Below, one piece after another: positions 3,821 through 31,763 of a DNA stretch of 64,000 bases. Position 1 is the stretch's first letter, and each line of letters opens with the position of its first letter. The translations under genes and the position numbers were made by a program. The notes beneath the pieces were generated by a model, which saw nothing but the letters and a program-made list of their open reading frames with translations, was not told where the DNA came from and made no database searches. The stretch is from an uncultured bacterium. GTDB taxonomy: Bacteria > Omnitrophota > Omnitrophia > Omnitrophales > Aquincolibacteriaceae. Where the stretch lies: positions 87,945 to 151,944 of the forward strand of contig CAYZYT010000007.1 in assembly GCA_964482725.1 (NCBI GenBank). The letters run 5' to 3'.

Positions 3821-6649
3821 ATGAGCGAAGCGAAGAATTATAAAGACACACTTAATCTTCCGCAAACGCCTTTTCCCATGAAAGCGAATCTGGCTCAGCG
3901 CGAGCCGGAAATGCTTAAAAACTGGGAGGCCGAAGGTGTGTATGCTGCGATCCGCGCGAAGTCCGCGGGCAAGCCCAAGTATGTCCTTCATGATGGTCCT
4001 CCCTACGCGAATGGTCACATCCATATCGGGCACGCGCTCAATAAGGTTTTAAAAGACCTCATCGTGAAATACCAGACCATGCGCGGCCATGACGCGCTTT
4101 ATGTTCCGGGCTGGGACTGCCACGGGCTTCCGATCGAACATGCCTGCTTAAAAGAAATGGGCAAGCGCAAAGAGGAAGTGGACCGGGTTGAGTTTCGCCA
4201 GCAAGCACGAAAATATGCGGAAAGATTCGTGGAGATCCAGCGCGAAGGGTTCAAAAGGCTCGGGATCTTCGGGGAGTGGGACCAGCCCTACCTGACCATG
4301 AACTACGGGTATCAGACTTCGATCGCAGCATCTTTCCTTAAGCTTTATGAGGACGGTTTCATCGAACAACGCTTGAAACCCGTTCCTTGGTGCTATGACT
4401 GCGATACGGCGCTGGCGGAAGCCGAGCTTGAATACGAAGATAAGATCTCCAAATCGGTCTATGTGAAATTCCCCTTGGAAGATTCCAAGAACCTTCTTCA
4501 GCTTCCTTCCGGGACGACGGTCTCTTTGTTGGTATGGACCACTACGCCTTGGACTTTGCCGGCGAATGTCGGAGCGGCCGTGCATCCGGAGCTCGAATAC
4601 GGGATTTTTCAAAAAGGGAACGAGGCTTTTATCTTCGCCAGGGCCCTTGAGCAGAAACTAAAAGACAAGATCGACCTCAGTGGCTTCAAGGGCGTCAAGT
4701 CCGTGACCGGGCAGGAACTCAAGGGGCTGGAATATCAGCACCCTTTTTTGGGCCGAAAAGGAAAAGTGATTACGGCGGATTATGTGTCAAGTGAGGACGG
4801 CACGGGGATCGTCCATATCGCGCCGGGACACGGGGAAGACGACTATAAGCACGGACATCTGGAGCACGGCTTGCCGATCCTTTCCCCCGTGGATTCGAGG
4901 GGGAAGTTCACTGAAGAATTCTCTTTTTGCAAAGGCGAGCATGTCTTTAAAGCTAATCCCAAGATCACAGCTCTCTTAGCCGAGAAAGGGTTACTTCTGA
5001 AAGAGGAAGACTACCCGCACAGTTACCCGCATTGTTGGCGCTGCAAAAAGCCGATCCTTTTCCGTGCGACCACGCAATGGTTCATGAAGATCGACCATCA
5101 AGATCTACGCAAACGCATGCGCGGGGCTATCGAGAAAGACATCCAGTTCATTCCCGATTGGGGCAAGAACCGTATCGGGGCTATGGTGGAAACGCGCCCC
5201 GAATGGTGTCTCTCCCGTCAGCGGTATTGGGGCGTGCCGATCCCGGTGATCCGTTGCAAGCATTGCACGGGGGTGCACTTCGTCAAGGAATCCAAGGCGA
5301 AGATCCTGGAGCTGTTTGAAAAAGAGGGGGCGGACGCTTGGTTCGCGCATCCGGCGGAAGCCTTTCTTCCCCCAAACATCCAATGCCCGAAATGTCACAA
5401 AAGCGAATTTGAAAAAGAAACCGATATTATTGATGTCTGGTTCGATTCGGGAGTGAGCCATCAAGCCGTGCTCCACCGGCATCCGGGACTTCGGTATCCC
5501 GCCGACCTTTATCTCGAGGGTTCCGACCAGCACCGGGGGTGGTTCCAAAGCGCGCTCACCACTTCAATGGCGCTTGAGAACAAAAGTCCGTTCAAGAGCG
5601 TTCTGACCCATGGGTTCGTCATGGATGGCCAGGGGAAGAAGATGTCAAAATCCGCGGGCAATGTCGTGACCCCTCAGGATGTGATGAAAGAATTCGGGGC
5701 CGACGTGCTTCGTCTTTGGGTGACCTCCTGCGATTACCAGTTCGATGTCCGGCTTTCCAATGAGATCTTAAAACAGCTGGTGGATACCTACCGCAAGATC
5801 CGTAATACGTTCCGCTATTTTCTCTCGAATCTTTATGATTTTGAGCCCGCGAAACATGCCGTTTCTTATGAAAAGCTGCATTCCCTCGATCGATGGGCGA
5901 TGGCCAAGGCCGATCATTTGGTTGCGTCAGTGACGGATCTCTACGAACGCTTTGAATTCCATGAGATCTATCGCGAGGTCTACGATTTCTGCGTGGTGGA
6001 CTTGAGCGCTTATTACCTGGATGCTTTGAAGGATACTCTCTATACCGCGGCCCCGGATTCCTGGCTTCGCCGCTCCGCCCAGACGGCGTTCTTTTATATC
6101 CTGTCGCGCTTGGTGAAGATCGTGGCACCTATTTTGCCGTTCACTGCCGATGAGGTTTGGAAATCGTACAAGCTCGAAGAAGGTGTCACGACGGTTCATG
6201 CAAGCTCCTGGCCTGTTGCCTCGGGCGTTAAAACGGGGAATGATTTCCGCGATTGGGAACATCTCCGTGAGGTCCGTAATGCGATCACTCCTTTCCTTGA
6301 AAAAAAGCGCGAGGCCAAGGAGATCGGGGCGGGGCTTGAGGCGAAGGTGATCTTCACTGCAGAAGATCCGGAATCAGCCGAAATATTACACAAATATGAA
6401 AAAGAGCTTGCTCGTGTCTTTGTCGTGTCCCAGGTTGTTCTGGAAACAAAACCCGTAGAGGGGATGGAGGCGGCCGAAGGTCTTTCCTCGGCGCTCCAGA
6501 AGAAATTCGGGTTGCAGGTCCTTGTGACCAAAGCGGAAGGTTCAAAATGCGTTCGTTGCTGGAATTACTCGTCCTCCCTCGGTCAGGATCCTGAGCATGC
6601 TGCGCTCTGTCCTAAATGCGTTGAAGCGATCCGGGGAAGCCAATCGTGA
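3821..6649 (+). CDS. ileS: Isoleucyl-tRNA synthetase (type 1, with C-terminal Zn finger)
   Basis: HIGH motif ([15 protein letters not shown]) and KMSKS ([10 protein letters not shown]). C-terminal CxxC...CxxC. The track ORF starts at TTG 3806. I prefer ATG 3821 ([16 protein letters not shown]), which matches canonical IleS N-termini. Confidence 0.95.
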
Positions 6650-6694
6650 AACAAAGGGGATCCCCCCATTTTTAAAAAAGATGCTTCGTCCCAT

Positions 6695-8230
6695 GTGAGA
6701 ACTCCGAAGACGGTCCTGAAAAAGGTTCTGGTCGGTCTTGTGCTCTTCTTCTTGGGAGCTTTGGCCGCTTACCTGCTTCCTTTCCTGATCCCTGCCTCCG
6801 GCATTTCGAATCCCTGGGTGCACCATCCGCTGCTTCCGATCCTCGTGATGACCGTGATCTTTGTGACGGCCTATAAATCCACGGAACGGTTGGTTAAGAA
6901 ATTTCTCGAAAAGTATTTCTTCCATAAAAAAACATTTGCTCAGATGACCTTGATGGATCTGGCGGGCGATCTTGCCGTGAATTTAGACCTTCAGGAGATC
7001 TCGAACCTGGTGGTGAATACGTTCGGTGAGGTTTTGCAGCTGAAGACCGTGGCACTGCTCGTTTCGGATCCGCTCCAAAATAATTTTGAGGTCGCGTCAG
7101 CTTATGGATGGACGATCTCGGCTTCCAAAAAGATCCGTCTCGCGGCGGATACGCCGCTTTTAAGAGCGATCCATCAGACGGGACCCCATGTCCTGATGCG
7201 CGGTCCGATCCTTCAGAGCCTTTCCTGGCAGGAAGCGACTGCCCTGGCGCGTGATCTTGATTCTTTGCAAGCCGCCTGGGTCATTCCGCTGTTCGTGAAA
7301 GGGGAGCTCGTGGGGCTTCTCGCGTTCGGGGCGCTAGTGCCGGATACCGTGTTTGACCAGGGGGACTTCCATTTCTTCCGGGAATTTGCAGCCGCGATCG
7401 CTCCTTGTGTGCATAACGCCTTGGTGGTGAAACGGTTGAGGCAGCTTAATTTTGAGTTACAGGATTCTCAATCCCATTGGGTCCAGAAAACAAAATTGAA
7501 CGCGATCGAGAAGTTGGCCGCCGGGATTGCTCATGAGATCCATAATCCTTTAGCCATCATTTCCGGAAAGGCCCAGGTTCTGCTCATGCAAAAAGGGCCC
7601 AAGCAGCTTGAGACGAATGTTCAGGACGCGCTTAATACGATAGTGAAGCAAACGCGCCGGGCGGCCGATATAACAAGGAAGCTTTTGATGTATTCTCAGG
7701 GGTCTCGGGGGCCGCAAGAGGGGATCTTTCTGGAAAAAGTGCTGGATGAGACACTTTCGCTTTTGGCCTATCAGGCTTCGATCGATAAGATCGAGATCGT
7801 CAGGAATCTGGACCCGGAGCTGCCGGCGTTTTTTGGGAATATGCAGGAGATGCGGGAGATCTTCCTCAATCTGCTTCTGAATGCCGTGGAAGCGGTGGGG
7901 ACCGAGGGGAAGATCGTTGTGGAATTGAAGTATCGCCGGGATGAGGAGCTTATTGAAATCGTGTGTTCGGACACGGGGAAAGGGATCCCGGCCGAACATC
8001 TTGATAATGTTTTCAATCCGTTCTACACCACGCGCCACGAAGCGGTGGGACTCGGACTTTTCGTGACCAAACAGATCGTGCATCGCTGTGGCGGCTCGAT
8101 CCGCGTTGAAAGTCAGGTGGGGGTCGGCAGCATGTTCATCCTTCAATTGCCGTACGTGGCAGAAACGGCAAGGAATGCGGATGCGGAAAAGGCTGGCGGA
8201 TCGTTTTTGGGGGCCCGAAGAGAATTTTGA
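6695..8230 (+). CDS. Membrane-bound sensor histidine kinase (2 TM, GAF-like, HisKA and HATPase_c domains)
   Basis: H-box IAHEIHNPLAIISG. N/G1/G2 boxes LLLNAVEAV, DTGKGIP, GLGLFVTKQIV. Two N-terminal hydrophobic helices. Confidence 0.85.
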   Translation: MRTPKTVLKKVLVGLVLFFLGALAAYLLPFLIPASGISNPWVHHPLLPILVMTVIFVTAYKSTERLVKKFLEKYFFHKKTFAQMTLMDLAGDLAVNLDLQEISNLVVNTFGEVLQLKTVALLVSDPLQNNFEVASAYGWTISASKKIRLAADTPLLRAIHQTGPHVLMRGPILQSLSWQEATALARDLDSLQAAWVIPLFVKGELVGLLAFGALVPDTVFDQGDFHFFREFAAAIAPCVHNALVVKRLRQLNFELQDSQSHWVQKTKLNAIEKLAAGIAHEIHNPLAIISGKAQVLLMQKGPKQLETNVQDALNTIVKQTRRAADITRKLLMYSQGSRGPQEGIFLEKVLDETLSLLAYQASIDKIEIVRNLDPELPAFFGNMQEMREIFLNLLLNAVEAVGTEGKIVVELKYRRDEELIEIVCSDTGKGIPAEHLDNVFNPFYTTRHEAVGLGLFVTKQIVHRCGGSIRVESQVGVGSMFILQLPYVAETARNADAEKAGGSFLGARREF

Positions 8231-25047: not shown

Positions 25048-25249
25048 AATGGCGCATAATGTAACACAAGCTGAAAAATAGGGGAAGGAGAAAAGCCGCT
25101 AAAAACAGTGTTGGGCACATCGTACATAGCACCTAGCGAATCCTCGGCATAAACTCCGATTTTTCCAAGGACCAAGGACTATCAAGTATGTACCGTTTTT
25201 TATGAATAAAATTGTTGAAAGGACTGTTGTTAAGCGATATCATTACCCC

Positions 25250-25612
25250 ATGAAAAATAAAGGCGTCGCGTTAGTCGAGATCGTGGTGAGTATGATCGTC
25301 CTGGCGGTGGCCGCTTTAGCGGTGACTTCGACGGTTTCCATGGTGAATAGCAAGCAGCTGAGAAGCGCCGGCGGCAGCAGTCTCGATGTTCAAGCTTTGA
25401 GCTATGCGAGAGAAACCCTTGAGTCTCTAAAGAACTCTGTGAGCACGAACGATACCAACGGAAGTATGGGCGAGAAGCTCAAGGTTAGTGGCACAGCCTA
25501 CAATGTAACGAGCGGACTTCCTGCGGGATTTTCGCGGACCTATACGGTTTCGGACGTGGGGGGTGGCACCGGTCTTAAGAAAGTAAAAGTGACCGTCCAA
25601 TGGAACGATTAG
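25250..25612 (+). CDS. Prepilin-type N-terminal cleavage/methylation domain protein (minor pilin/pseudopilin-like)
   Basis: MKNKG|VALVEIVVSMIVLAV: class III signal peptide with G-1 and E+5. Confidence 0.7.
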   Translation: MKNKGVALVEIVVSMIVLAVAALAVTSTVSMVNSKQLRSAGGSSLDVQALSYARETLESLKNSVSTNDTNGSMGEKLKVSGTAYNVTSGLPAGFSRTYTVSDVGGGTGLKKVKVTVQWND

Positions 25613-26163
25613 AAAGAGCGGTCGACGGTTTTACCCTCTTCGAGCTTGTGATCGCCATAGCCCTTTCTGCAGTTGTTTTGCTTTCCGCGGGTAATCTCCT
25701 TATCAATTTTGGGAAATTTTCTTCGAATGTCGTCAAATCCGAGGCGTCGCTCATGGGGACTGCTCTCGGCACTTTCGAGGAGATCGTCGGAAAGATCACC
25801 ATCGCCGACAAGGTGACCATCCCCGCGACGACCATTACGCCTGTCCCTGCTTCTTCGACAGATAACTCCATTGAAATACGAGTCCATCCGGCAAGCGCGT
25901 CCTATGATCCCTCTCACACCGGTGACACAATTTATACTTATTGGAGAGATGGTGCTAATTTGAAAAGTAAATCCAAGGTTGGGACGGCCGCGGAGAGTGC
26001 GGTACGTGTTGTGTCGGCGGATATTACTTTGGCAACATTTCAAAAGGATAGCACTTTAACGAACCACATTATCGTGACCCTGGATGCCCAGACGAGCAGC
26101 CAGACTAAGGAACAGTTGAAGACAACAGCCATCATGCGGTCAAGGAGCGCAAATTTGATATGA
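25600..26163 (+). CDS. Prepilin-type N-terminal cleavage/methylation domain protein (minor pilin/pseudopilin-like)
   Basis: MERLERAVDG|FTLFELVIAIALSAVVLL: canonical GFTLxE motif. Confidence 0.75.
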   Translation: MERLERAVDGFTLFELVIAIALSAVVLLSAGNLLINFGKFSSNVVKSEASLMGTALGTFEEIVGKITIADKVTIPATTITPVPASSTDNSIEIRVHPASASYDPSHTGDTIYTYWRDGANLKSKSKVGTAAESAVRVVSADITLATFQKDSTLTNHIIVTLDAQTSSQTKEQLKTTAIMRSRSANLI

Positions 26164-26495
26164 AAAAAGGATTCGCATTGATCACCGTTTTGGCGGTCTT
26201 GATCATGATCGCGCTGGGCACAGCGGCCGTGCTGCAATCGGTGGGCAGCCAAACTAATCTGAAGTCCATCAATGTTCAGGAGGTCAAGGAGCAATTTCTT
26301 TCCGAAGCGGGCATGCAGTATGCCTTATGGCGTTCTAGAAATGGGGCGAATCCTGCCAGTGAAAACTATACGGTCATGGATATAGACGGGACAACGCCTC
26401 TCGGCGATGTCGTTATCATCAAGGCAGAGACTGCTTCCGGGTCCGGAATATACAAGATCAAAGTGTGTGTTGGCAGTGGTGCCTGTACTTTTTAA
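26160..26495 (+). CDS. Pseudopilin-like protein (prepilin-type leader without E+5, GspK/PilX-like)
   Basis: MKKG|FALITVLAVLIMIALG. ATGA overlap with the upstream gene. Confidence 0.6.
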   Translation: MKKGFALITVLAVLIMIALGTAAVLQSVGSQTNLKSINVQEVKEQFLSEAGMQYALWRSRNGANPASENYTVMDIDGTTPLGDVVIIKAETASGSGIYKIKVCVGSGACTF

Positions 26496-26537
26496 AAATG
26501 GGAAATCCCCGCAAGGGACGATCCTAGGGAGAAAAAA

Positions 26538-26954
26538 ATGAATAGCCGGAAAGGGTTTTCTCTAACTGAGATTTTGACAACGGTCGTGATCTTGGCCGTT
26601 CTAGCGGGGATCGCGATCCCCGGTTTTTCTAAAGCAAAGGACAAAGCCGCGGCCGCTCAGGCAGTCGCTTATCTGCGGAGCATCCGGCTCGGTGAGAAGA
26701 TGTATTTTGCGAAGAACGCGACCTACGTAGATTGCTCGACCAAGGCGCTTCTTAGTTCCACGCTTGGGGTCGATGTCACAGAGGAGAATTATCATTTTGA
26801 TGTGACAGGCGCGAGCAGTTCAACCTTTACCGCCAGATCACGCAAAGGTGTGGATCCTACGGATTGCAGTTCTACCAACACGATCTGCCTCCAGGCGGAC
26901 GGTACCTGGTCCGGGAACTCCACGTATGTGTCCTTCGCTACACTTAATAGCTAA
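26538..26954 (+). CDS. Type IVa pilin-like protein (PilA-like major pilin candidate)
   Basis: MNSRKG|FSLTEILTTVVILAVLAGIAIP. C-terminal Cys pair (DCSSTNTIC) forms a D-region-like loop. AGGGAG RBS. Confidence 0.8.
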   Translation: MNSRKGFSLTEILTTVVILAVLAGIAIPGFSKAKDKAAAAQAVAYLRSIRLGEKMYFAKNATYVDCSTKALLSSTLGVDVTEENYHFDVTGASSSTFTARSRKGVDPTDCSSTNTICLQADGTWSGNSTYVSFATLNS

Positions 26955-27136: not shown

Positions 27137-27556
27137 ATGATCCCCAAAAGCATTTTAGGCGTTATGTTTTTTTCAGTAGTCGTGTTCGTATCCAGTGCGT
27201 ATGCCGGCAAAGTTGAGCTGACCACTTATTACCCGGCGCCGAACGGCGAGTACAGCCGGCTTCAGGCCAGCGGGTCGTGCGTGGGGTCGACTTGTGGCAC
27301 GGCAGCGGATGATGTGACCAACGACAATCTAAAGGTCAAGGGAACGACGACCACCACGAATGCGACGATCACAGGAACGACGACCACCACCAATGCGACC
27401 ATCACCACGGCCACCATCCAAGATGCGACGATCACAGGAACGACCACGACCGGCAATGCAAATGTCACCGGTACGACTCAGACGGGCAGGATCCGGCTCA
27501 CAGCGACGGGGACACCGAGCGGCACTATTCCGGACGGAACCATGTGGATCCAGTAA
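27137..27556 (+). CDS. Secreted Thr-rich tandem-repeat protein (hypothetical)
   Basis: Signal peptide MIPKSILGVMFFSVVVFVSSAYA. Repeats GTTTTTNATITG x3-4, encoded by ~33-nt DNA tandem repeats at 27340-27470. Confidence 0.6.
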   Translation: MIPKSILGVMFFSVVVFVSSAYAGKVELTTYYPAPNGEYSRLQASGSCVGSTCGTAADDVTNDNLKVKGTTTTTNATITGTTTTTNATITTATIQDATITGTTTTGNANVTGTTQTGRIRLTATGTPSGTIPDGTMWIQ

Positions 27557-27606: not shown

Positions 27607-28494
27607 ATGCAGCGGCATAGTTATAGGGCCCAGATCCGCGTGACGGTTGCCCCCTTTTTGTTAGCCATGTTTTTCATTTCCATTCTTTTTTTCTCTAAAA
27701 ACCTTTGGGCTGTCGAGATCTCCGATACCGAACTTTCATGGGTTTCATCGATGCATTATTCCGGATGTACAGGCCAGGATTGGAATGCGATCAAGAATGG
27801 AGGAGTATGCAAGGAAAGTAACGGAGAGCTTTGCGGCAACCATGATACAGGCCGTTGTCGGCAGTCCTGCTGCGCTCTGAACCGTCCGGGGATGGGGCAC
27901 GGGACTTGGGAGTATGAAGCTGATGACGGATGGATCTTGTTTAGTTTTACAAGCGTAAGAAGGATCACTTCGGTTTCACTTAGCAGCTACAATTCTGCGG
28001 GCCAGACAGTTTATTTTGGGAACGGGAGCGGGGTTTCGGTCGGCAATCAAGGAGGCACTGCGACGAACCCAGCGCCGAATACAAATGTCAGCACCATCAA
28101 GGTTACCAAGTGGAATTCCAATAACTATTGGAATATCAACAATGTCCGTTTTTTTTGTGCACCTAAAACGTGCGCAGATTATCCCGGGGACTACGGGACG
28201 AGTTTGGCCGATGGCTGCGGTAGCACCATCGATTGCTCAGCGGCCATGCCACTCACCGAAGTTATGAAAGTCCAATGTCCGGGGGTGACTACGCCTGTTC
28301 GAATTGCCGGCAAAGCGACATCCCTATCCTCCCTGAAGATCCAGAAGGGCGGTACAACCTATAGTCTTGCGCTGGTTGATCCGGCGACGGCTCCTGCTGC
28401 CCAAGTCTCATGTCTTCGGGTCAAAATGCCCGGCGTTGCGGCCCCACAAGCATTGCGGAAGTGTGACCCCGCCGTGACTGCTACTTGCAACTAG
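27607..28494 (+). CDS. Secreted Cys-rich hypothetical protein with conserved C-terminal CPGVT...C-x-PAVTATC module (paralog A)
   Basis: Hydrophobic N-terminus, many Cys. C-terminal ~85 aa homologous to the C-terminus of the 28575..29381 protein. GAGGAG RBS. Confidence 0.6.
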   Translation: MQRHSYRAQIRVTVAPFLLAMFFISILFFSKNLWAVEISDTELSWVSSMHYSGCTGQDWNAIKNGGVCKESNGELCGNHDTGRCRQSCCALNRPGMGHGTWEYEADDGWILFSFTSVRRITSVSLSSYNSAGQTVYFGNGSGVSVGNQGGTATNPAPNTNVSTIKVTKWNSNNYWNINNVRFFCAPKTCADYPGDYGTSLADGCGSTIDCSAAMPLTEVMKVQCPGVTTPVRIAGKATSLSSLKIQKGGTTYSLALVDPATAPAAQVSCLRVKMPGVAAPQALRKCDPAVTATCN

Positions 28495-28574
28495 CACCCC
28501 AATGATCCTGACGGAGTTGCTTCTCAAGGCAGAAAAGGGGTTTCTTTAAGACAATTTATCTTGAGATCAATAAT

Positions 28575-29381
28575 ATGACGAGAATTCTTGAGAAAATCAG
28601 AAAGCTTTGCTTCTTCGGAGGCCTCTTTTTTTTATCCTGTCAATGTTTTCCCGACACTGTTTTTGCGGATTCTTGTGCTACGGCGGAGTGGAGCAGTGGC
28701 GGTTACTCTTACTGGAGGCAGACCAACACGTGCAAGTCTTGGACGGATGGAAATGAATGCAACGGAACATCAACGCCAGCAGGGTATTCATGTGAAACGA
28801 GAGTGCTTGGCGATAATAATACATGGTGCAATTTTACTTGTGGTGCGTGGGCGTTCAATTGCTGCGTGAGATGCTGCAAGAAATGTACTAAAAGTTGCAA
28901 ATCCCAAACGGGGACGGCCTGTGGAGTGAGCAGGGACGATGGGTGTAAAACCGGTTGTGGAACCGGCACTTACTGTGCTACGAGCGGTTATGTTTGTACG
29001 AGCGGAAAATGTGTTTGCAACGATCAATGTAAATCTGCGGCGACGACGGCTTGCGGTGCGAGCCTCAACAATGGATGCAAAACCGATTGTGGAGCTGGAA
29101 CTTACTGCGCTAACGGCGCCGTTTGTACAGGTGGGGCATGTTCTTCCGGTTATACCGAAGTGATGAAGGTTCAATGTCCGGGGGTGACGATACCGGTGAG
29201 GATTGCCGGGAGCAAGACTTCCACATCCCCGCTGAAGATACAGAAGAGTGATGGCGTCTATGGCGTGGAATATGTTCCTGTGGGAGACGCTAACGGCTCA
29301 TGTGTCCATATCAAACTACCGACTCTTGGAGAAAAGGTTTTGCGGAAATGTAACCCGGCGGTGACGGCTACCTGCGCCTGA
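28575..29381 (+). CDS. Secreted Cys-rich hypothetical protein with internal ACG.S..GCKT.CG.GTYCA repeats and a C-terminal CPGVT...C-x-PAVTATC module (paralog B)
   Basis: Signal peptide. About 30 Cys. Two internal ~35 aa Cys repeats. C-terminus EVMKVQCPGVTIPVRIAG...LRKCNPAVTATCA. Confidence 0.6.
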   Translation: MTRILEKIRKLCFFGGLFFLSCQCFPDTVFADSCATAEWSSGGYSYWRQTNTCKSWTDGNECNGTSTPAGYSCETRVLGDNNTWCNFTCGAWAFNCCVRCCKKCTKSCKSQTGTACGVSRDDGCKTGCGTGTYCATSGYVCTSGKCVCNDQCKSAATTACGASLNNGCKTDCGAGTYCANGAVCTGGACSSGYTEVMKVQCPGVTIPVRIAGSKTSTSPLKIQKSDGVYGVEYVPVGDANGSCVHIKLPTLGEKVLRKCNPAVTATCA

Positions 29382-29431: not shown

Positions 29432-29476
29432 AAAAAAAAGGACAGGCCCCCTTTAGGCGCTTGTCCTTTTTTATTA
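29432..29476. terminator. Bidirectional Rho-independent terminator between convergent genes
   Basis: A8-AGGACAGGccccctttaggcGCTTGTCCT-T6: stem-loop flanked by an A-tract and a T-tract. Confidence 0.7.
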
Positions 29477-30289
29477 TTTCTTTAGAACAGCTTCGATCTC
29501 AGCTTTCCAGGCGTCTGCCGTTCGAGAAGCGCTTTTTTTACCATTCAGGAAAAATGTCGGCGTTCCCATCACATCCACCTTGCTGCCTAACTCCAGATCA
29601 GATTCGATGATCTTTTCATAGGTGGCGTCTTTGTCTTTTAGATCTTTCTGGAATCGAGCTACATTGAGCCCTGCTTTTTGAGCTAATTCCGTGAACTTGT
29701 CGTTGTTGAGCATTTCCGCGTTCGCAAGAATCAGGTCAGACATTTCGTAGAACTTGCCCTGCTCGCCCGCGGCCATTGCCGCCTTCGCTGCCTGGCGCGC
29801 CTTATCGTGGAATGGCAGGGGATAGTGTTTGACGAGGATGCGGACCTGATCCGGGAAGGCTTTCTGGCTTGCGATTGCTTGTGGATAAAATTTCGCGCTG
29901 AAAGGACACTGATAATCCTGGAAAACAGTGATCGTTAGCGGAGCGTCTTGGGGGCCCAGTAAATACGAATTTGCGACCGGGAGGTCATAGACTTTATTCA
30001 TATCTTCCGGCGGCGGCCCGGACATCGCAGCGAGCTGGGTTTTGATCGCTTTGACTTCGGATTCCAGGGCGGTGAGCCTTGCTTCCCAAGCGCTTGAAGC
30101 GGCCTTGCCGGCCGTGAGCAGTGTTGCCTCCATCTTCTTCTGGCTGCCGGCAATCTCCTGAAGGTGTCCGGAGATCGTTAGGGTTGCAGAGCGCACGGTT
30201 CTTTCGATGAAATAGGTGAGGCCCGATCCTCCGGCGACGAGAGTCAGAGCGATCAGTGTAAAGGTAAAAAGTCTATTTTTGTGACCCAT
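29474..30289 (-). CDS. DsbA-like thioredoxin-fold protein, membrane-anchored with a coiled-coil linker. The active site is CPFS (CxxS) rather than CxxC.
   Basis: VFQDYQCPFSAKFYP, read from the - strand (TGT CCT TTC AGC). DsbA-family C-terminal fold (GTPTFFLNGK). N-terminal TM helix. Confidence 0.7.
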   Translation of the reverse strand: MGHKNRLFTFTLIALTLVAGGSGLTYFIERTVRSATLTISGHLQEIAGSQKKMEATLLTAGKAASSAWEARLTALESEVKAIKTQLAAMSGPPPEDMNKVYDLPVANSYLLGPQDAPLTITVFQDYQCPFSAKFYPQAIASQKAFPDQVRILVKHYPLPFHDKARQAAKAAMAAGEQGKFYEMSDLILANAEMLNNDKFTELAQKAGLNVARFQKDLKDKDATYEKIIESDLELGSKVDVMGTPTFFLNGKKSASRTADAWKAEIEAVLKK

Positions 30290-30512
30290 GGGATTTCTCC
30301 TGATTTTTGAAACGTATGGTACCTCAAGCGTGTTTGGAAATCCATGGTTTCGAACGGAAGCCTCGAGAAAAGATTCTTTTGTCTCGCGGGCTTATTTCGC
30401 GTATTAAAATTAAAGAAGCCCATTTATTTTTCGAGTTTATTGACAAGCCCCGCATGGGTTTAGTATGATACCGCAAATGGGACAGGCAACAGCATCTATC
30501 CAGCATATTTAC

Positions 30513-30566
30513 AGGCACAAAGCAGCGCGGAACGCGTTCGTCTTTGTGCCTTTTTTGTTTTTAGCG
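30513..30566 (+). terminator. Intrinsic terminator-like hairpin inside the 5' leader of the guaB-like gene (candidate attenuator or riboswitch expression platform)
   Basis: AGGCACAAAG-(19 nt loop)-CTTTGTGCCT followed by TTTTTTGTTTTT on the + strand. 10-bp perfect stem. Confidence 0.5.
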
Positions 30567-30602
30567 GCCACTGATTCTAAAGATTAAACAGGGGGAACTC
30601 TT

Positions 30603-31763
30603 ATGTCCGTTTTTATCGGAAAAGATCGCAAAGCACGCCGGGCCTATGGTTTCGATGAGATCGCTTTAGTGCCCGGTGACAAAACCATCAATCCGGATGA
30701 AGTCGATATCAAGATGCCCTTGGGAGACATGACGCTCGATATTCCGTTCTTGGCTTCCGCCATGGACGGTGTTGTGGACCCGAAGTTCGCCATCGCCATG
30801 GGAAAACTCGGGGGGCTTGCCGTGTTGAACCTCGAAGGGATCTATACCCGCTACGACGATTACGAATCGATCCTTGAGGAGATCTCCAAATCAACGCCGG
30901 AAAAGGCGACGCAGCTCGTTCAAAAACTGTATGTCAAACCCATCAACGAAAAGCTGATCGCTAAACGTATCAAAGAGATCAAAAAGGCGAAGGTCCTTTG
31001 CGCCGTGAGTGCGATCCCTCAGCGTGCCGAACGGTTCGGGAAGATCGCCGAAGAAGCGGGCGCGGACATTTTTGTGGTTCAATCGACGGTCACTTCGGTG
31101 AAGCACATATCGAAAGCTTATCAGGTGGTTAATTTTTCAAAGTTTTGTAAAAAAATGAAGATTCCGGTTATCTTGGGGAACTGTGTGACTTACAAAGTCG
31201 CTTTGGAACTCGCGGAAACCGGTTGCGCAGGACTTCTTATCGGCATCGGCCCGGGTTCGGCCTGCACGAGTCGCGGTGTTTTGGGGATTGGAGTGCCTCA
31301 GGTGACTGCGATCGCCGATTGCGCAGCGGCGCGTGAGCACTATTACAAAAAAACTGGAAAATACGTTTCAATTATCGCGGATGGTGGCATGTCGACCGGC
31401 GGCGATATTTGCAAATCGATCGCCAGTGGTGCGGATGGTGTCATGGTGGGATCGGCTTTTGCCCGTGCGAAAGAAGCCCCCGGCCGAGGGTTCCATTGGG
31501 GCATGGCCACGCCTCACGCGAATCTTCCTCGTGGCACGAGAATTCATGTGGGGACGACTGGGACTCTGGAAGAGATCCTTCAGGGACCCGCGCATTTGGA
31601 TGACGGAACGCAGAACCTGGTGGGTGCTCTTCGCACTTCCATGGGGAATCTTGGCGCTTCCAATATCCGTGAGATGCAGATGACCGAAATCGTGATCGCG
31701 CCGGCCATCAAGACCGAAGGAAAACTATTTCAAACAGCCCAGAAGCTTGGGATGTGCAAATGA
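30603..31763 (+). CDS. IMP dehydrogenase-family protein lacking the CBS subdomain (GuaB-like, short form)
   Basis: 386 aa. IMPDH N-terminus (YGFDEIALVPG). Catalytic loop GIGPGSACTSRGVLGIGVPQVTAIAD with Cys retained. AGGGGGA RBS. Confidence 0.75.
   Translation: MSVFIGKDRKARRAYGFDEIALVPGDKTINPDEVDIKMPLGDMTLDIPFLASAMDGVVDPKFAIAMGKLGGLAVLNLEGIYTRYDDYESILEEISKSTPEKATQLVQKLYVKPINEKLIAKRIKEIKKAKVLCAVSAIPQRAERFGKIAEEAGADIFVVQSTVTSVKHISKAYQVVNFSKFCKKMKIPVILGNCVTYKVALELAETGCAGLLIGIGPGSACTSRGVLGIGVPQVTAIADCAAAREHYYKKTGKYVSIIADGGMSTGGDICKSIASGADGVMVGSAFARAKEAPGRGFHWGMATPHANLPRGTRIHVGTTGTLEEILQGPAHLDDGTQNLVGALRTSMGNLGASNIREMQMTEIVIAPAIKTEGKLFQTAQKLGMCK

Follow-up and report, generated by a model that had tools for sequence, protein, structure and literature searches.

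Two adjacent genes in a 64,000-nucleotide stretch of an uncultured Omnitrophota genome (GenBank assembly GCA_964482725.1, contig CAYZYT010000007.1, positions 87,945 to 151,944 of the forward strand; hereafter the window) encode secreted, cysteine-rich proteins, A (27607-28494, + strand, 295 amino acids (aa)) and B (28575-29381, + strand, 268 aa), which end in a module belonging to an undescribed domain family without curated or solved relatives. The genes of this family are paired with a gene for a fibre-like protein with a conserved C-terminal tail, located no more than two genes upstream and represented in the window by a short protein of 139 aa (27137-27556, + strand), here called the YYP protein. 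With slightly better than even confidence, we read the locus as a two-part, phage-fibre-like surface adhesin in which the YYP protein would be the stalk and A and B exchangeable heads docked on it through their C-terminal module. A fibre of two parts is the simplest account of the locus, because a conserved C-terminal domain carried by variable heads lies beside a fibre with a conserved tail.

The C-terminal module and its variable heads

Signal peptides were predicted by eye at aa 1-35 of A (..FFSKNLWA/VEIS, the slash marking the cut) and aa 1-31 of B (..PDTVFA/DSCA), and the cleavage context ..LWA/VEIS is kept in orthologues. Protein A continues with a Cys-rich N-terminal stretch, a jelly-roll-like head, a linker and the module (28255-28494, + strand, aa 217-295, matching the family profile over positions 1-75), and protein B with a Cys-rich head, including two tandem repeats of ~39 aa (28896-29141, + strand, aa 108-146 and 152-189; CK..TACG....GCKT.CG.GTYCA.G.VCT.G.C), followed by its own module (29154-29381, + strand, aa 194-268). 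All 14 cysteines of A lie in the mature part, as do 30 of the 33 in B (mature length 237 aa). BLASTP of A against B returned a single significant segment (A217-294 with B194-267, 44/78 residues identical, 56%, E=1e-21) and no alignment of the N-terminal parts, whilst the two repeats of B aligned locally with a score of 140 versus 44 ± 7 in 1000 shuffles; a Cys repeat resembling that of B is also found in proteins P0016 and P0002. Other metagenomes contain orthologues of A and B that are 74-86% identical and keep the reading frames, on which ground we consider both to be real genes and rejected the possibility of spurious open reading frames (ORFs). A preliminary description of this DNA had already reported two secreted, disulfide-rich proteins with homologous C-termini and internal repeats in B, and had considered the ORFs genuine, all of which is borne out here. 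The terminal signature CxPAVTATC that it put forward survives in two module variants; family-wide, only two cysteines 4-9 residues apart are kept (CGASDCS, CGGTAPNCT, CNTTDTICS).

When 1.84 billion representative proteins were searched with a profile built from seven modules, 84 scored at E≤1e-3, about 76 of which were judged genuine. These include phage virion proteins without signal peptides, so the module is not peculiar to the window locus. In every aligned member, 0-9 residues follow the module before the protein ends; exceptions with an N-terminal module are P0088 and a 920-aa protein of locus L034. Module-only proteins of 70-115 aa also exist (e.g., P0043, 111 aa). Close relatives are rare: a word-indexed search of 5.8 billion proteins yielded five to six, a scan of metagenome contigs only two loci, and scans of GTDB representative genome contigs and of 50,697 deposited phage genomes none, nor was the subfamily on signal-peptide proteins (DIGLRV..ALRKY) found in IMG/VR. 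The earlier proposal that the module falls outside all known families was upheld, in that A, B and their relatives matched no curated family in Pfam or NCBIfam (at E≤1, Pfam gave 0 families for A, B and five relatives), PHROGs gave no match to A or B and unannotated families only for the phage module proteins, the module profile found chance matches only amongst PDB sequences (E≥0.84), and the module fold had no match among PDB structures.

Modelled with AlphaFold2 from a 55-sequence alignment, the module of B comprises seven beta strands in about 65 aa at a predicted local distance difference test score (pLDDT) of 90.6, followed by a tail (residues 66-75) with a pLDDT of ~60. The family divides into (i) the Cys type of the window (EVMKVQCP..VRIAG..LKIQK..Y..LV..SC..LRKC..C), (ii) a type found on signal-peptide proteins of up to 957 aa (DIGLRVYDG..IACEP.GTLTSPLRIRKG.TTYGIVLV..ALRKY), with source names that include Omnitrophota, Planctomycetes and Phycisphaerae, and (iii) a type found on proteins without signal peptides (YYHGLKVQGVGELALCDVG.HPLRIRKGGTTYGIELV..AIRKYT) in phage contigs, both beside Phage_Mu_F and in IMG/VR. 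Distant members stop at LRK[YLMQ] and have no tail. These tail-less members lack both C66 and C74, yet retain C8 and C50, and it is this joint loss and joint retention that implies putative disulfides C8-C50 and C66-C74. The 920-aa secreted protein of L034 (2197-4959), encoded 3' of a 75-aa short YYP protein, is the sole case seen of a module before its cargo; its module-like stretch is N-terminal (hmmsearch E=5e-6), and it also carries GLUG repeats (Pfam E=1.9e-17), Myxococcus-type Cys repeats and eight C-terminal GGDNTT repeats.

The heads attached to these modules are unrelated, encompassing pectate-lyase-like beta-helix/NosD, DUF2341, Cys-rich, jelly-roll and thrombospondin-type-1 (TSP1)-like forms. 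The AlphaFold2 model of mature A (mean pLDDT 68) shows a beta sandwich across residues 60-150 or so (pLDDT 75-86), and its module scores about 90. Foldseek placed this head weakly among galactose-binding-domain-like jelly rolls of the PDB (E=3e-3 to 3e-2), with matches to the CBM32 structure 4a42 (E=5e-3, TMt 0.48) and to 4zxe (E=8e-3) over a region of only 75-86 pLDDT, and further matches to chitosan-binding CBM32, DDR1 discoidin, lectinolysin, SUN and IFT25; the Pfam family F5_F8_type_C did not match. Taken together, these comparisons provide moderate evidence for a glycan- or surface-binding head in A, modelled as a CBM32/discoidin-like jelly roll. A TSP1-like motif is visible in the heads of P0004 (L006, 393-1160; WSSWGSCSKTCGGGTQTR / WSSWGSCSKTCGGGTQTRT) and P0026 (L098, 1708-2859; WSDCTATCNGGTRTRT), although Pfam TSP_1 matched neither at E≤1. 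Amongst the roles first suggested for A and B, that of an adhesin or receptor-binding protein is the best reading, given the jelly-roll-like head of A and the beta-helix, DUF2341 and TSP1-like heads of relatives.

The heads have not shared the history of their modules. Head identity among the B proteins is 86%, compared to 53% for the modules that these heads carry, and the B module of the window is 99% identical to that of P0003, a protein with an unrelated head. Likewise, the heads of A and P0007 are 79% identical and their modules 50%, whilst the P0007 module is 82% identical to that of the B orthologue in L001 and the A module 88% identical to that of the orthologue P0006. L001, from a close relative, holds three module genes compared to two in the window. 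This is a pattern of cassette shuffling, in which heads and modules recombine independently of each other where they join. Rather than the simple paralogous pair of the preliminary description, A and B are two cassettes of a shuffling array that numbers from one to at least three per genome.

Pairing of module genes with a gene for a fibre-like, proposed stalk protein

The YYP protein is preceded by a GAGGTG ribosome-binding site and consists of a signal peptide, a conserved mature N-terminus (GKVELTTYYPAPNGEY), a Thr-rich shaft of TITGTTTT repeats and a C-terminal tail (..TGTPSGTIPDGTMWIQ). It matched a PHROG tail-fibre family weakly (E=1.9e-3). The YYP proteins of relatives have in common a signal peptide followed by (A)GKVELTTYYPAPxGEY, with variable C-terminal parts, and those of sister genomes are tail-fibre-like, with a Peptidase_S74 chaperone domain (E=3e-15) and NVGIGT shaft motifs.

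The preliminary description had looked to the pilin and DsbA genes as neighbours of the module genes; the consistent neighbour is instead the upstream gene at 27137-27556, which that description had left out. Within Omnitrophota, a protein ending ..G[QT][IM]W.. is encoded directly upstream of a module gene in the window (..TGTPSGTIPDGTMWIQ), L006 (..RTSAPTAPAEGQIWIQ), L012 (..QGTPTNREDGQMWIP), L098 (..QGTPANIQDGQIWIE) and L034 (..KEGEIWVQP), the general form of this end being ..GQIWIQ. Loci of subfamily (ii) agree: in L095, P0068 has one gene upstream of it an ORF that ends ..SDPSSPVTGQIWLRTDL, a short YYP protein ending ..DGLIWLRTDVGP is encoded one gene upstream of P0043 in L115 (complete Omnitrophota genome CP070837), and the module ORF of L120 comes straight after the gene of a 581-aa YYP fibre. 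At the phage loci (the L008 group, L092, L093 and L094), the partner is directly upstream of the module gene or one gene apart, and its tail (..SLVIENRTSDPGSPVNGQIWLRTDL) follows the pattern ..PxxGQIWLRTDL. In profile comparison, the window-type tail aligned with the phage partner tail ..DPGSPVNGQIWLRTDL (hhalign P=1.2e-4 and 5.5e-4).

The pairing was also recovered in the reciprocal direction. A search of viral contigs with the phage tail motif led to three new distinct loci (L101/102, L103/104 and L106), in each of which the partner ends ..RTDL and a module ORF adjoins it or lies 1-2 genes downstream (E=9e-7, 1.6e-8 and 5e-12); no module gene was found at viral loci where the tail motif is internal to a single-chain fibre. 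Across 15,584 ORFs of the collected DNA, 20 end in the tail motif, 18 of them just upstream of a module gene. Adjacency holds at all eight cellular loci that have their upstream side in view and a partner identified, and at seven distinct phage loci, L116 being the one exception. The cellular versions of both partners carry signal peptides and the phage versions do not.

Further features were observed at some of these loci. Between the short YYP gene and the module-only gene of L115 lies a gene for a 528-aa secreted protein with an FGE-sulfatase domain (6388-7974), which may be a third component or a head detached from its module. Module-only ORFs of L119 and L120 share synteny with TP_methylase, GlmS and L27, with a DSBA-family gene a few genes off; the L120 unit is flanked by the toxin-antitoxin genes BrnT and HicA, and its module ORF, which has an insertion and no ATG start, may be decaying. 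In the tailspike of Bacillus phage Stills, a cultured phage (L118, record 25441-25557; pectin-lyase fold), the tail motif is internal (..GGLVLDKRTSDPADAVEGQVWYRTDSSKAPVRVMTSEG..) and lies at the junction of the beta-helix body and a ~140-aa C-terminal domain, which suggests that the motif marks a connector in single-chain spikes.

Under the favoured reading, the 139-aa protein would be exported by Sec to form a short fibre or stalk, anchored at the cell surface by its N-terminus GKVELTTYYPAPxGEY and offering its C-terminal tail (..P..DGxxWIQ) as a docking site. On this stalk, A and B would serve as alternative tips, each a variable, disulfide-stabilised binding head, with a CBM32/discoidin-like jelly roll in A and EGF-like or knottin-like Cys repeats in B, and the ~65-75-aa all-beta module would join head to stalk tail non-covalently. 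The same joint would also serve the virions of uncultured phages, there without signal peptides and Cys pairs, and because virions would use the same tail-module joint, the cellular system would be a relative of a phage receptor-binding joint. Recombination would reshuffle heads and modules, and tip gene number would vary among close relatives, so that each strain would bind its own set of targets, plausibly host or prey cells, or glycans, whilst the adjacent CxxS DsbA-like protein would probably aid oxidative folding of the Cys-rich tips. The domain family, its C-terminal position, the gene pairing, the mosaicism and the lack of known homologues rest directly on the sequences compared; the docking of module on tail, and equally the oligomeric state of the fibre, its surface location, its ligand and any pilus link, we infer.

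Several observations weigh against this two-part fibre. Both flanks of L116 are visible and no partner lies near its module gene, the upstream YYP fibre of L120 does not end in the GQIW motif, and amongst the tails compared, that of the YYP protein of the window (..DGTMWIQ) diverges most. Head A was modelled with only moderate confidence (mean pLDDT 68), and its fold matches are weak (E about 1e-2). Unsupported too is the idea that the module is the missing half of a single-chain fibre motif (..GQIWxNTxxxxLKVRxNGxT..): hhalign picked the expected register (P=0.028), and hmmsearch scores on nine single-chain sequences were no better than the top 1-3% of shuffles, with inconsistent registers. 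Finally, adjacency could instead reflect a chaperone relationship or co-secretion.

The variable island and its neighbouring genes

The YYP gene and the genes of A and B belong to a variable island between a surA-like gene (- strand) and an IMPDH-like gene (+ strand). The remainder of the window is housekeeping in character (IleRS, DnaG, RpoD, CarB, PFK, RNase P and tRNAs), and its DnaE is 95% identical to that of the Candidatus Omnitrophota metagenome-assembled genome JBAYVF01. The island site is empty in six relatives (L017, L020, L024, L032, L033 and L038), and occupied islands contain 4-7 prepilin genes followed by 1-3 secreted YYP proteins, with prepilin genes only in L026. We rejected a prophage remnant as explanation, given that A, B and the YYP protein all carry signal peptides, the island holds no other phage genes and the surA-IMPDH site is stable. 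In L015, a 430-aa AAA-ATPase-like gene (5474-6766; ..LLLGARQTGKTTL..) lies between the YYP gene and the IMPDH-like gene.

Four prepilin-like genes open the island of the window, all on the + strand. The first (25202-25612; ..KNKG/VALVE..) encodes a PilV-like minor pilin (Pfam N_methyl E=1.1e-4; NCBIfam type_IV_pilV E=1.6e-6, under the family cut-off) and overlaps by 13 nt the second (25600-26163), which encodes a PilW/GspJ-like minor pilin (N_methyl E=3.6e-5, TIGR02532 E=4.5e-4). The third, PilX/GspK-like (26160-26495; MKKG/FALITVL, no Glu at +5), overlaps the second by 4 nt and matched NCBIfam GspH and GspK weakly (E=2e-4 and 1.5e-3), and the fourth (26538-26954) is major-pilin-like (N_methyl E=3.4e-6, ComP_DUS E=1.3e-5, with NCBIfam PilA and GspG N-terminal matches). 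N_methyl or TIGR02532, the prepilin cleavage/methylation motif, is detected in genes 1, 2 and 4, with only a hydrophobic N-terminus in gene 3.

Convergent with B, a gene at 29474-30289 (- strand) encodes a membrane-anchored DsbA-like thioredoxin-fold protein (Thioredoxin_4 E=8.9e-22, DSBA E=1.5e-13), the active site of which is CPFS (CxxS, in ..QDYQCPFSAKF..) and not CxxC; the L001 orthologue has CPFS too. The same gene also follows the module genes in L001/L002 and on the P0016 contig, and was found neither after P0008 in L007 nor in any island without Cys-type module genes, such that it neighbours three of the four Cys-type loci with a visible downstream side. Pilin genes are missing from the module loci L115 and L120 and from the phage contigs. 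Module homologues do not always occur with pilin and DsbA-CxxS genes, a co-occurrence that the preliminary description had suggested checking, and both neighbours are clade-specific rather than universal.

Two non-coding stretches of the window were also recorded. In the intergenic stretch 29432-29473, where B and the DsbA-like gene converge, a GC-rich hairpin (GGACAGGC..GCTTGTCC) is accompanied by an A-run and a T-run; together they look like a bidirectional intrinsic terminator, which was missed by a consensus scan. Ahead of the IMPDH-like gene, the leader (30440-30603) has a near-consensus promoter-like site (TTGACA-18-TATGAT, 11/12 matches) with a terminator-like hairpin and T-run about 55 nt downstream (30524-30538), and from ..ATGATACCGCAAATGGGACAGG onwards it is conserved in relatives (L013-L030), where it appears as a spurious CMIPQMGQ ORF. 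This leader could be an attenuator or an unrecognised riboswitch; it had no Rfam match at the gathering score.

Alternative explanations and comparison with known systems

That A and B, and perhaps the YYP protein, are PilY1-like pilus-tip adhesins, docked by the module onto a tip complex of the four minor-pilin-like proteins, strikes us as unlikely, though it fits the gene order in the clade of the window. There, YYP and module genes always follow 4-7 prepilin genes in the same orientation, often with tiny gaps, and pilin adjacency is seen in at least eight loci (the window, L012, L013, L014, L015, L030, L034 and L098, the last with a 2-nt gap), mirroring the gene position of pilY1 in fimU-pilVWX-pilY1 operons; PilY1 too combines a variable N-terminal part with a conserved C-terminal docking domain. 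A survey of Omnitrophota describes type IVa (T4a) pili as commonly encoded in the phylum and thought to mediate host attachment (PMC10066038), which is consistent with such a role. Yet the module and its partner occur without pilin genes in L115, L120/121 and all phage contigs, L026 possesses the pilin set and neither YYP nor module genes, and no Pfam match to the PilY1/PilC domain was obtained. Pilus-tip adhesion would be compatible with the two-part fibre if the YYP N-terminus, rather than the module, touches the pilus. We regard it as improbable that the module is instead a C-terminal secretion or sorting domain, analogous to the C-terminal domain (CTD) of type IX secretion (T9SS) substrates or to a type II secretion element, which would deliver cargo to an export or attachment machine, possibly the neighbouring pseudopilus. 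An extreme C-terminal, all-beta domain of about 65-75 aa behind unrelated Sec cargo has the hallmarks of a CTD, and pseudopilin-like genes do lie upstream. The module, however, is also carried by phage proteins that lack signal peptides and are encoded among virion genes, because of which an export signal would make no sense in the phage; an NCBIfam scan of A and B at E≤1, covering the T9SS CTD models TIGR04183 and TIGR04131, gave 0 families; and neither the pairing with a GQIW-tailed fibre gene nor the existence of module-only proteins such as P0043 is explained.

Slightly less probable still is that the module proteins, or the short upstream protein, are assembly chaperones for one another rather than stable adhesin partners. 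Chaperones of the Tfa and gp38 type are typically encoded by a small gene tightly adjoining that of the fibre, and some module proteins are indeed very small (module-only, 70-115 aa). This account sits poorly with large, functional-looking heads (a 743-aa pectate-lyase-like beta helix, DUF2341 and the CBM32-like jelly roll), with proteins of 585-957 aa, and with the lack of PHROG chaperone matches, whilst exchangeable tips would better explain why a stalk has 2-3 alternative heads and why heads and modules are shuffled. The toxin role mentioned in the preliminary description, worked out here as secreted Cys-rich toxins or bacteriocins with the module as a receptor-binding or translocation domain, is the least probable of all and is scarcely to be expected. 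Small, secreted, disulfide-rich and hypervariable proteins within a variable island would suit it, but neither immunity-like genes nor toxin-domain matches (Pfam, NCBIfam, PHROGs) are present, the heads look like binding modules, and the variable part is N-terminal here as opposed to C-terminal in polymorphic toxins.

A bolder extension of the two-part fibre, which we put forward only tentatively, is that the locus exemplifies an undescribed, portable plug-and-socket joint used both in phage virions and in Omnitrophota/Planctomycetota-like fibres, with the stalk here carried on a type IV pilus tip. The socket would be a fibre ending ..PxxGQIW(LRTDL) and the plug the ~65-aa C-terminal beta domain, such that one stalk could bear interchangeable receptor-binding heads, on a pilus made of the adjacent minor pilins. 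Were this so, an ultra-small, putatively host-dependent bacterium would have gained phage-like, rapidly reprogrammable host recognition.

None of the papers searched contains the motifs. The Omnitrophota survey covers T4a pili and giant adhesin ORFs and, in its passages on pilins, tail fibres, adhesins and cysteine, proteins like A, B and YYP are not brought up (PMC10066038). Omnitrophota are abundant, uncultured, ultra-small and suspected to live attached to other cells, and are proposed in that survey to be host-attached nanobacteria (PMC10066038), which makes the locus a concrete candidate for partner recognition. If the docking is true, the locus would represent a new domain family and a new modular-fibre design, characterized by C-terminal tip docking, heads as separate genes and independent recombination, and would connect the evolution of receptor-binding proteins in phages with that of surface adhesins in bacterial cells. 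Host-recognition loci in metagenomes could in that case be located bioinformatically by three markers, namely the YYP N-terminus, the GQIW tail and the module, and the joint could act as a small, engineerable connector for binding-domain swaps.

Among systems already described, the closest analogues of the proposed fibre are the gp37-gp38 fibres of phage T2 and Salmonella phage S16 and the Bdellovibrio fibres discussed below. The gp37-gp38 fibres, and the Mu and P2 fibres with Tfa, resemble the proposed arrangement in that the product of an adjacent gene sits at the distal end of the fibre; in gp38, this separate protein bears the receptor-binding specificity and differs among relatives. Unlike the module proteins, gp38 attaches via an N-terminal domain, whereas the conserved piece here is C-terminal. 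No sequence, PHROG or fold similarity connects gp38 or Tfa to the module proteins, and the joint described here, the attachment of which we infer, is also found on Sec-exported cellular proteins. PilY1/PilC proteins are likewise encoded after a minor-pilin set, matched here by the four prepilin-like genes on the same strand (25202-26954), and dock on the filament tip through a conserved C-terminal part below a variable adhesive N-terminal one, yet A and B show no similarity to the PilY1 beta propeller (Pfam, none at E≤1), the module is ten times smaller, and it also occurs at pilin-free loci. Like the module, the T9SS CTD (Por_Secre_tail) is small, rich in beta structure and placed at the very C-terminal end of many secreted cargos that are otherwise unrelated; it differs in that the module is carried by phage proteins without signal peptides and pairs with a specific fibre gene. 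FimH of chaperone-usher pili also joins a variable N-terminal lectin head to a conserved C-terminal domain, which integrates by strand complementation; its fold and secretion route are different and no chaperone or usher genes are present, hence the likeness is purely architectural.

Bdellovibrio bacteriovorus, which likewise attaches to other cells, displays surface adhesins resembling phage tail fibres, the mosaic adhesive trimer (MAT) fibres. These are built of a signal peptide, a conserved N-terminal domain, a shaft and a variable tip with or without Peptidase_S74; tip swapping has been proposed for them, and a possible connection with type IV pili has been raised (PMC10769870). The long YYP proteins of L012, L013 and L030 fit this architecture. 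The single-chain MAT layout is nevertheless absent from the window, where A and B have no fibre or S74 domain and the proposed stalk has no tip domain: the tip is a separate polypeptide, presumably joined by the undescribed module. As described, MAT is set apart also by its conserved N-terminal domain of ~130 aa, in comparison to which the conserved YYP N-terminus is far shorter. Phage-fibre-like adhesins with exchangeable tips are an already known kind of system, to which the window would add an undescribed domain family and its partner motif.

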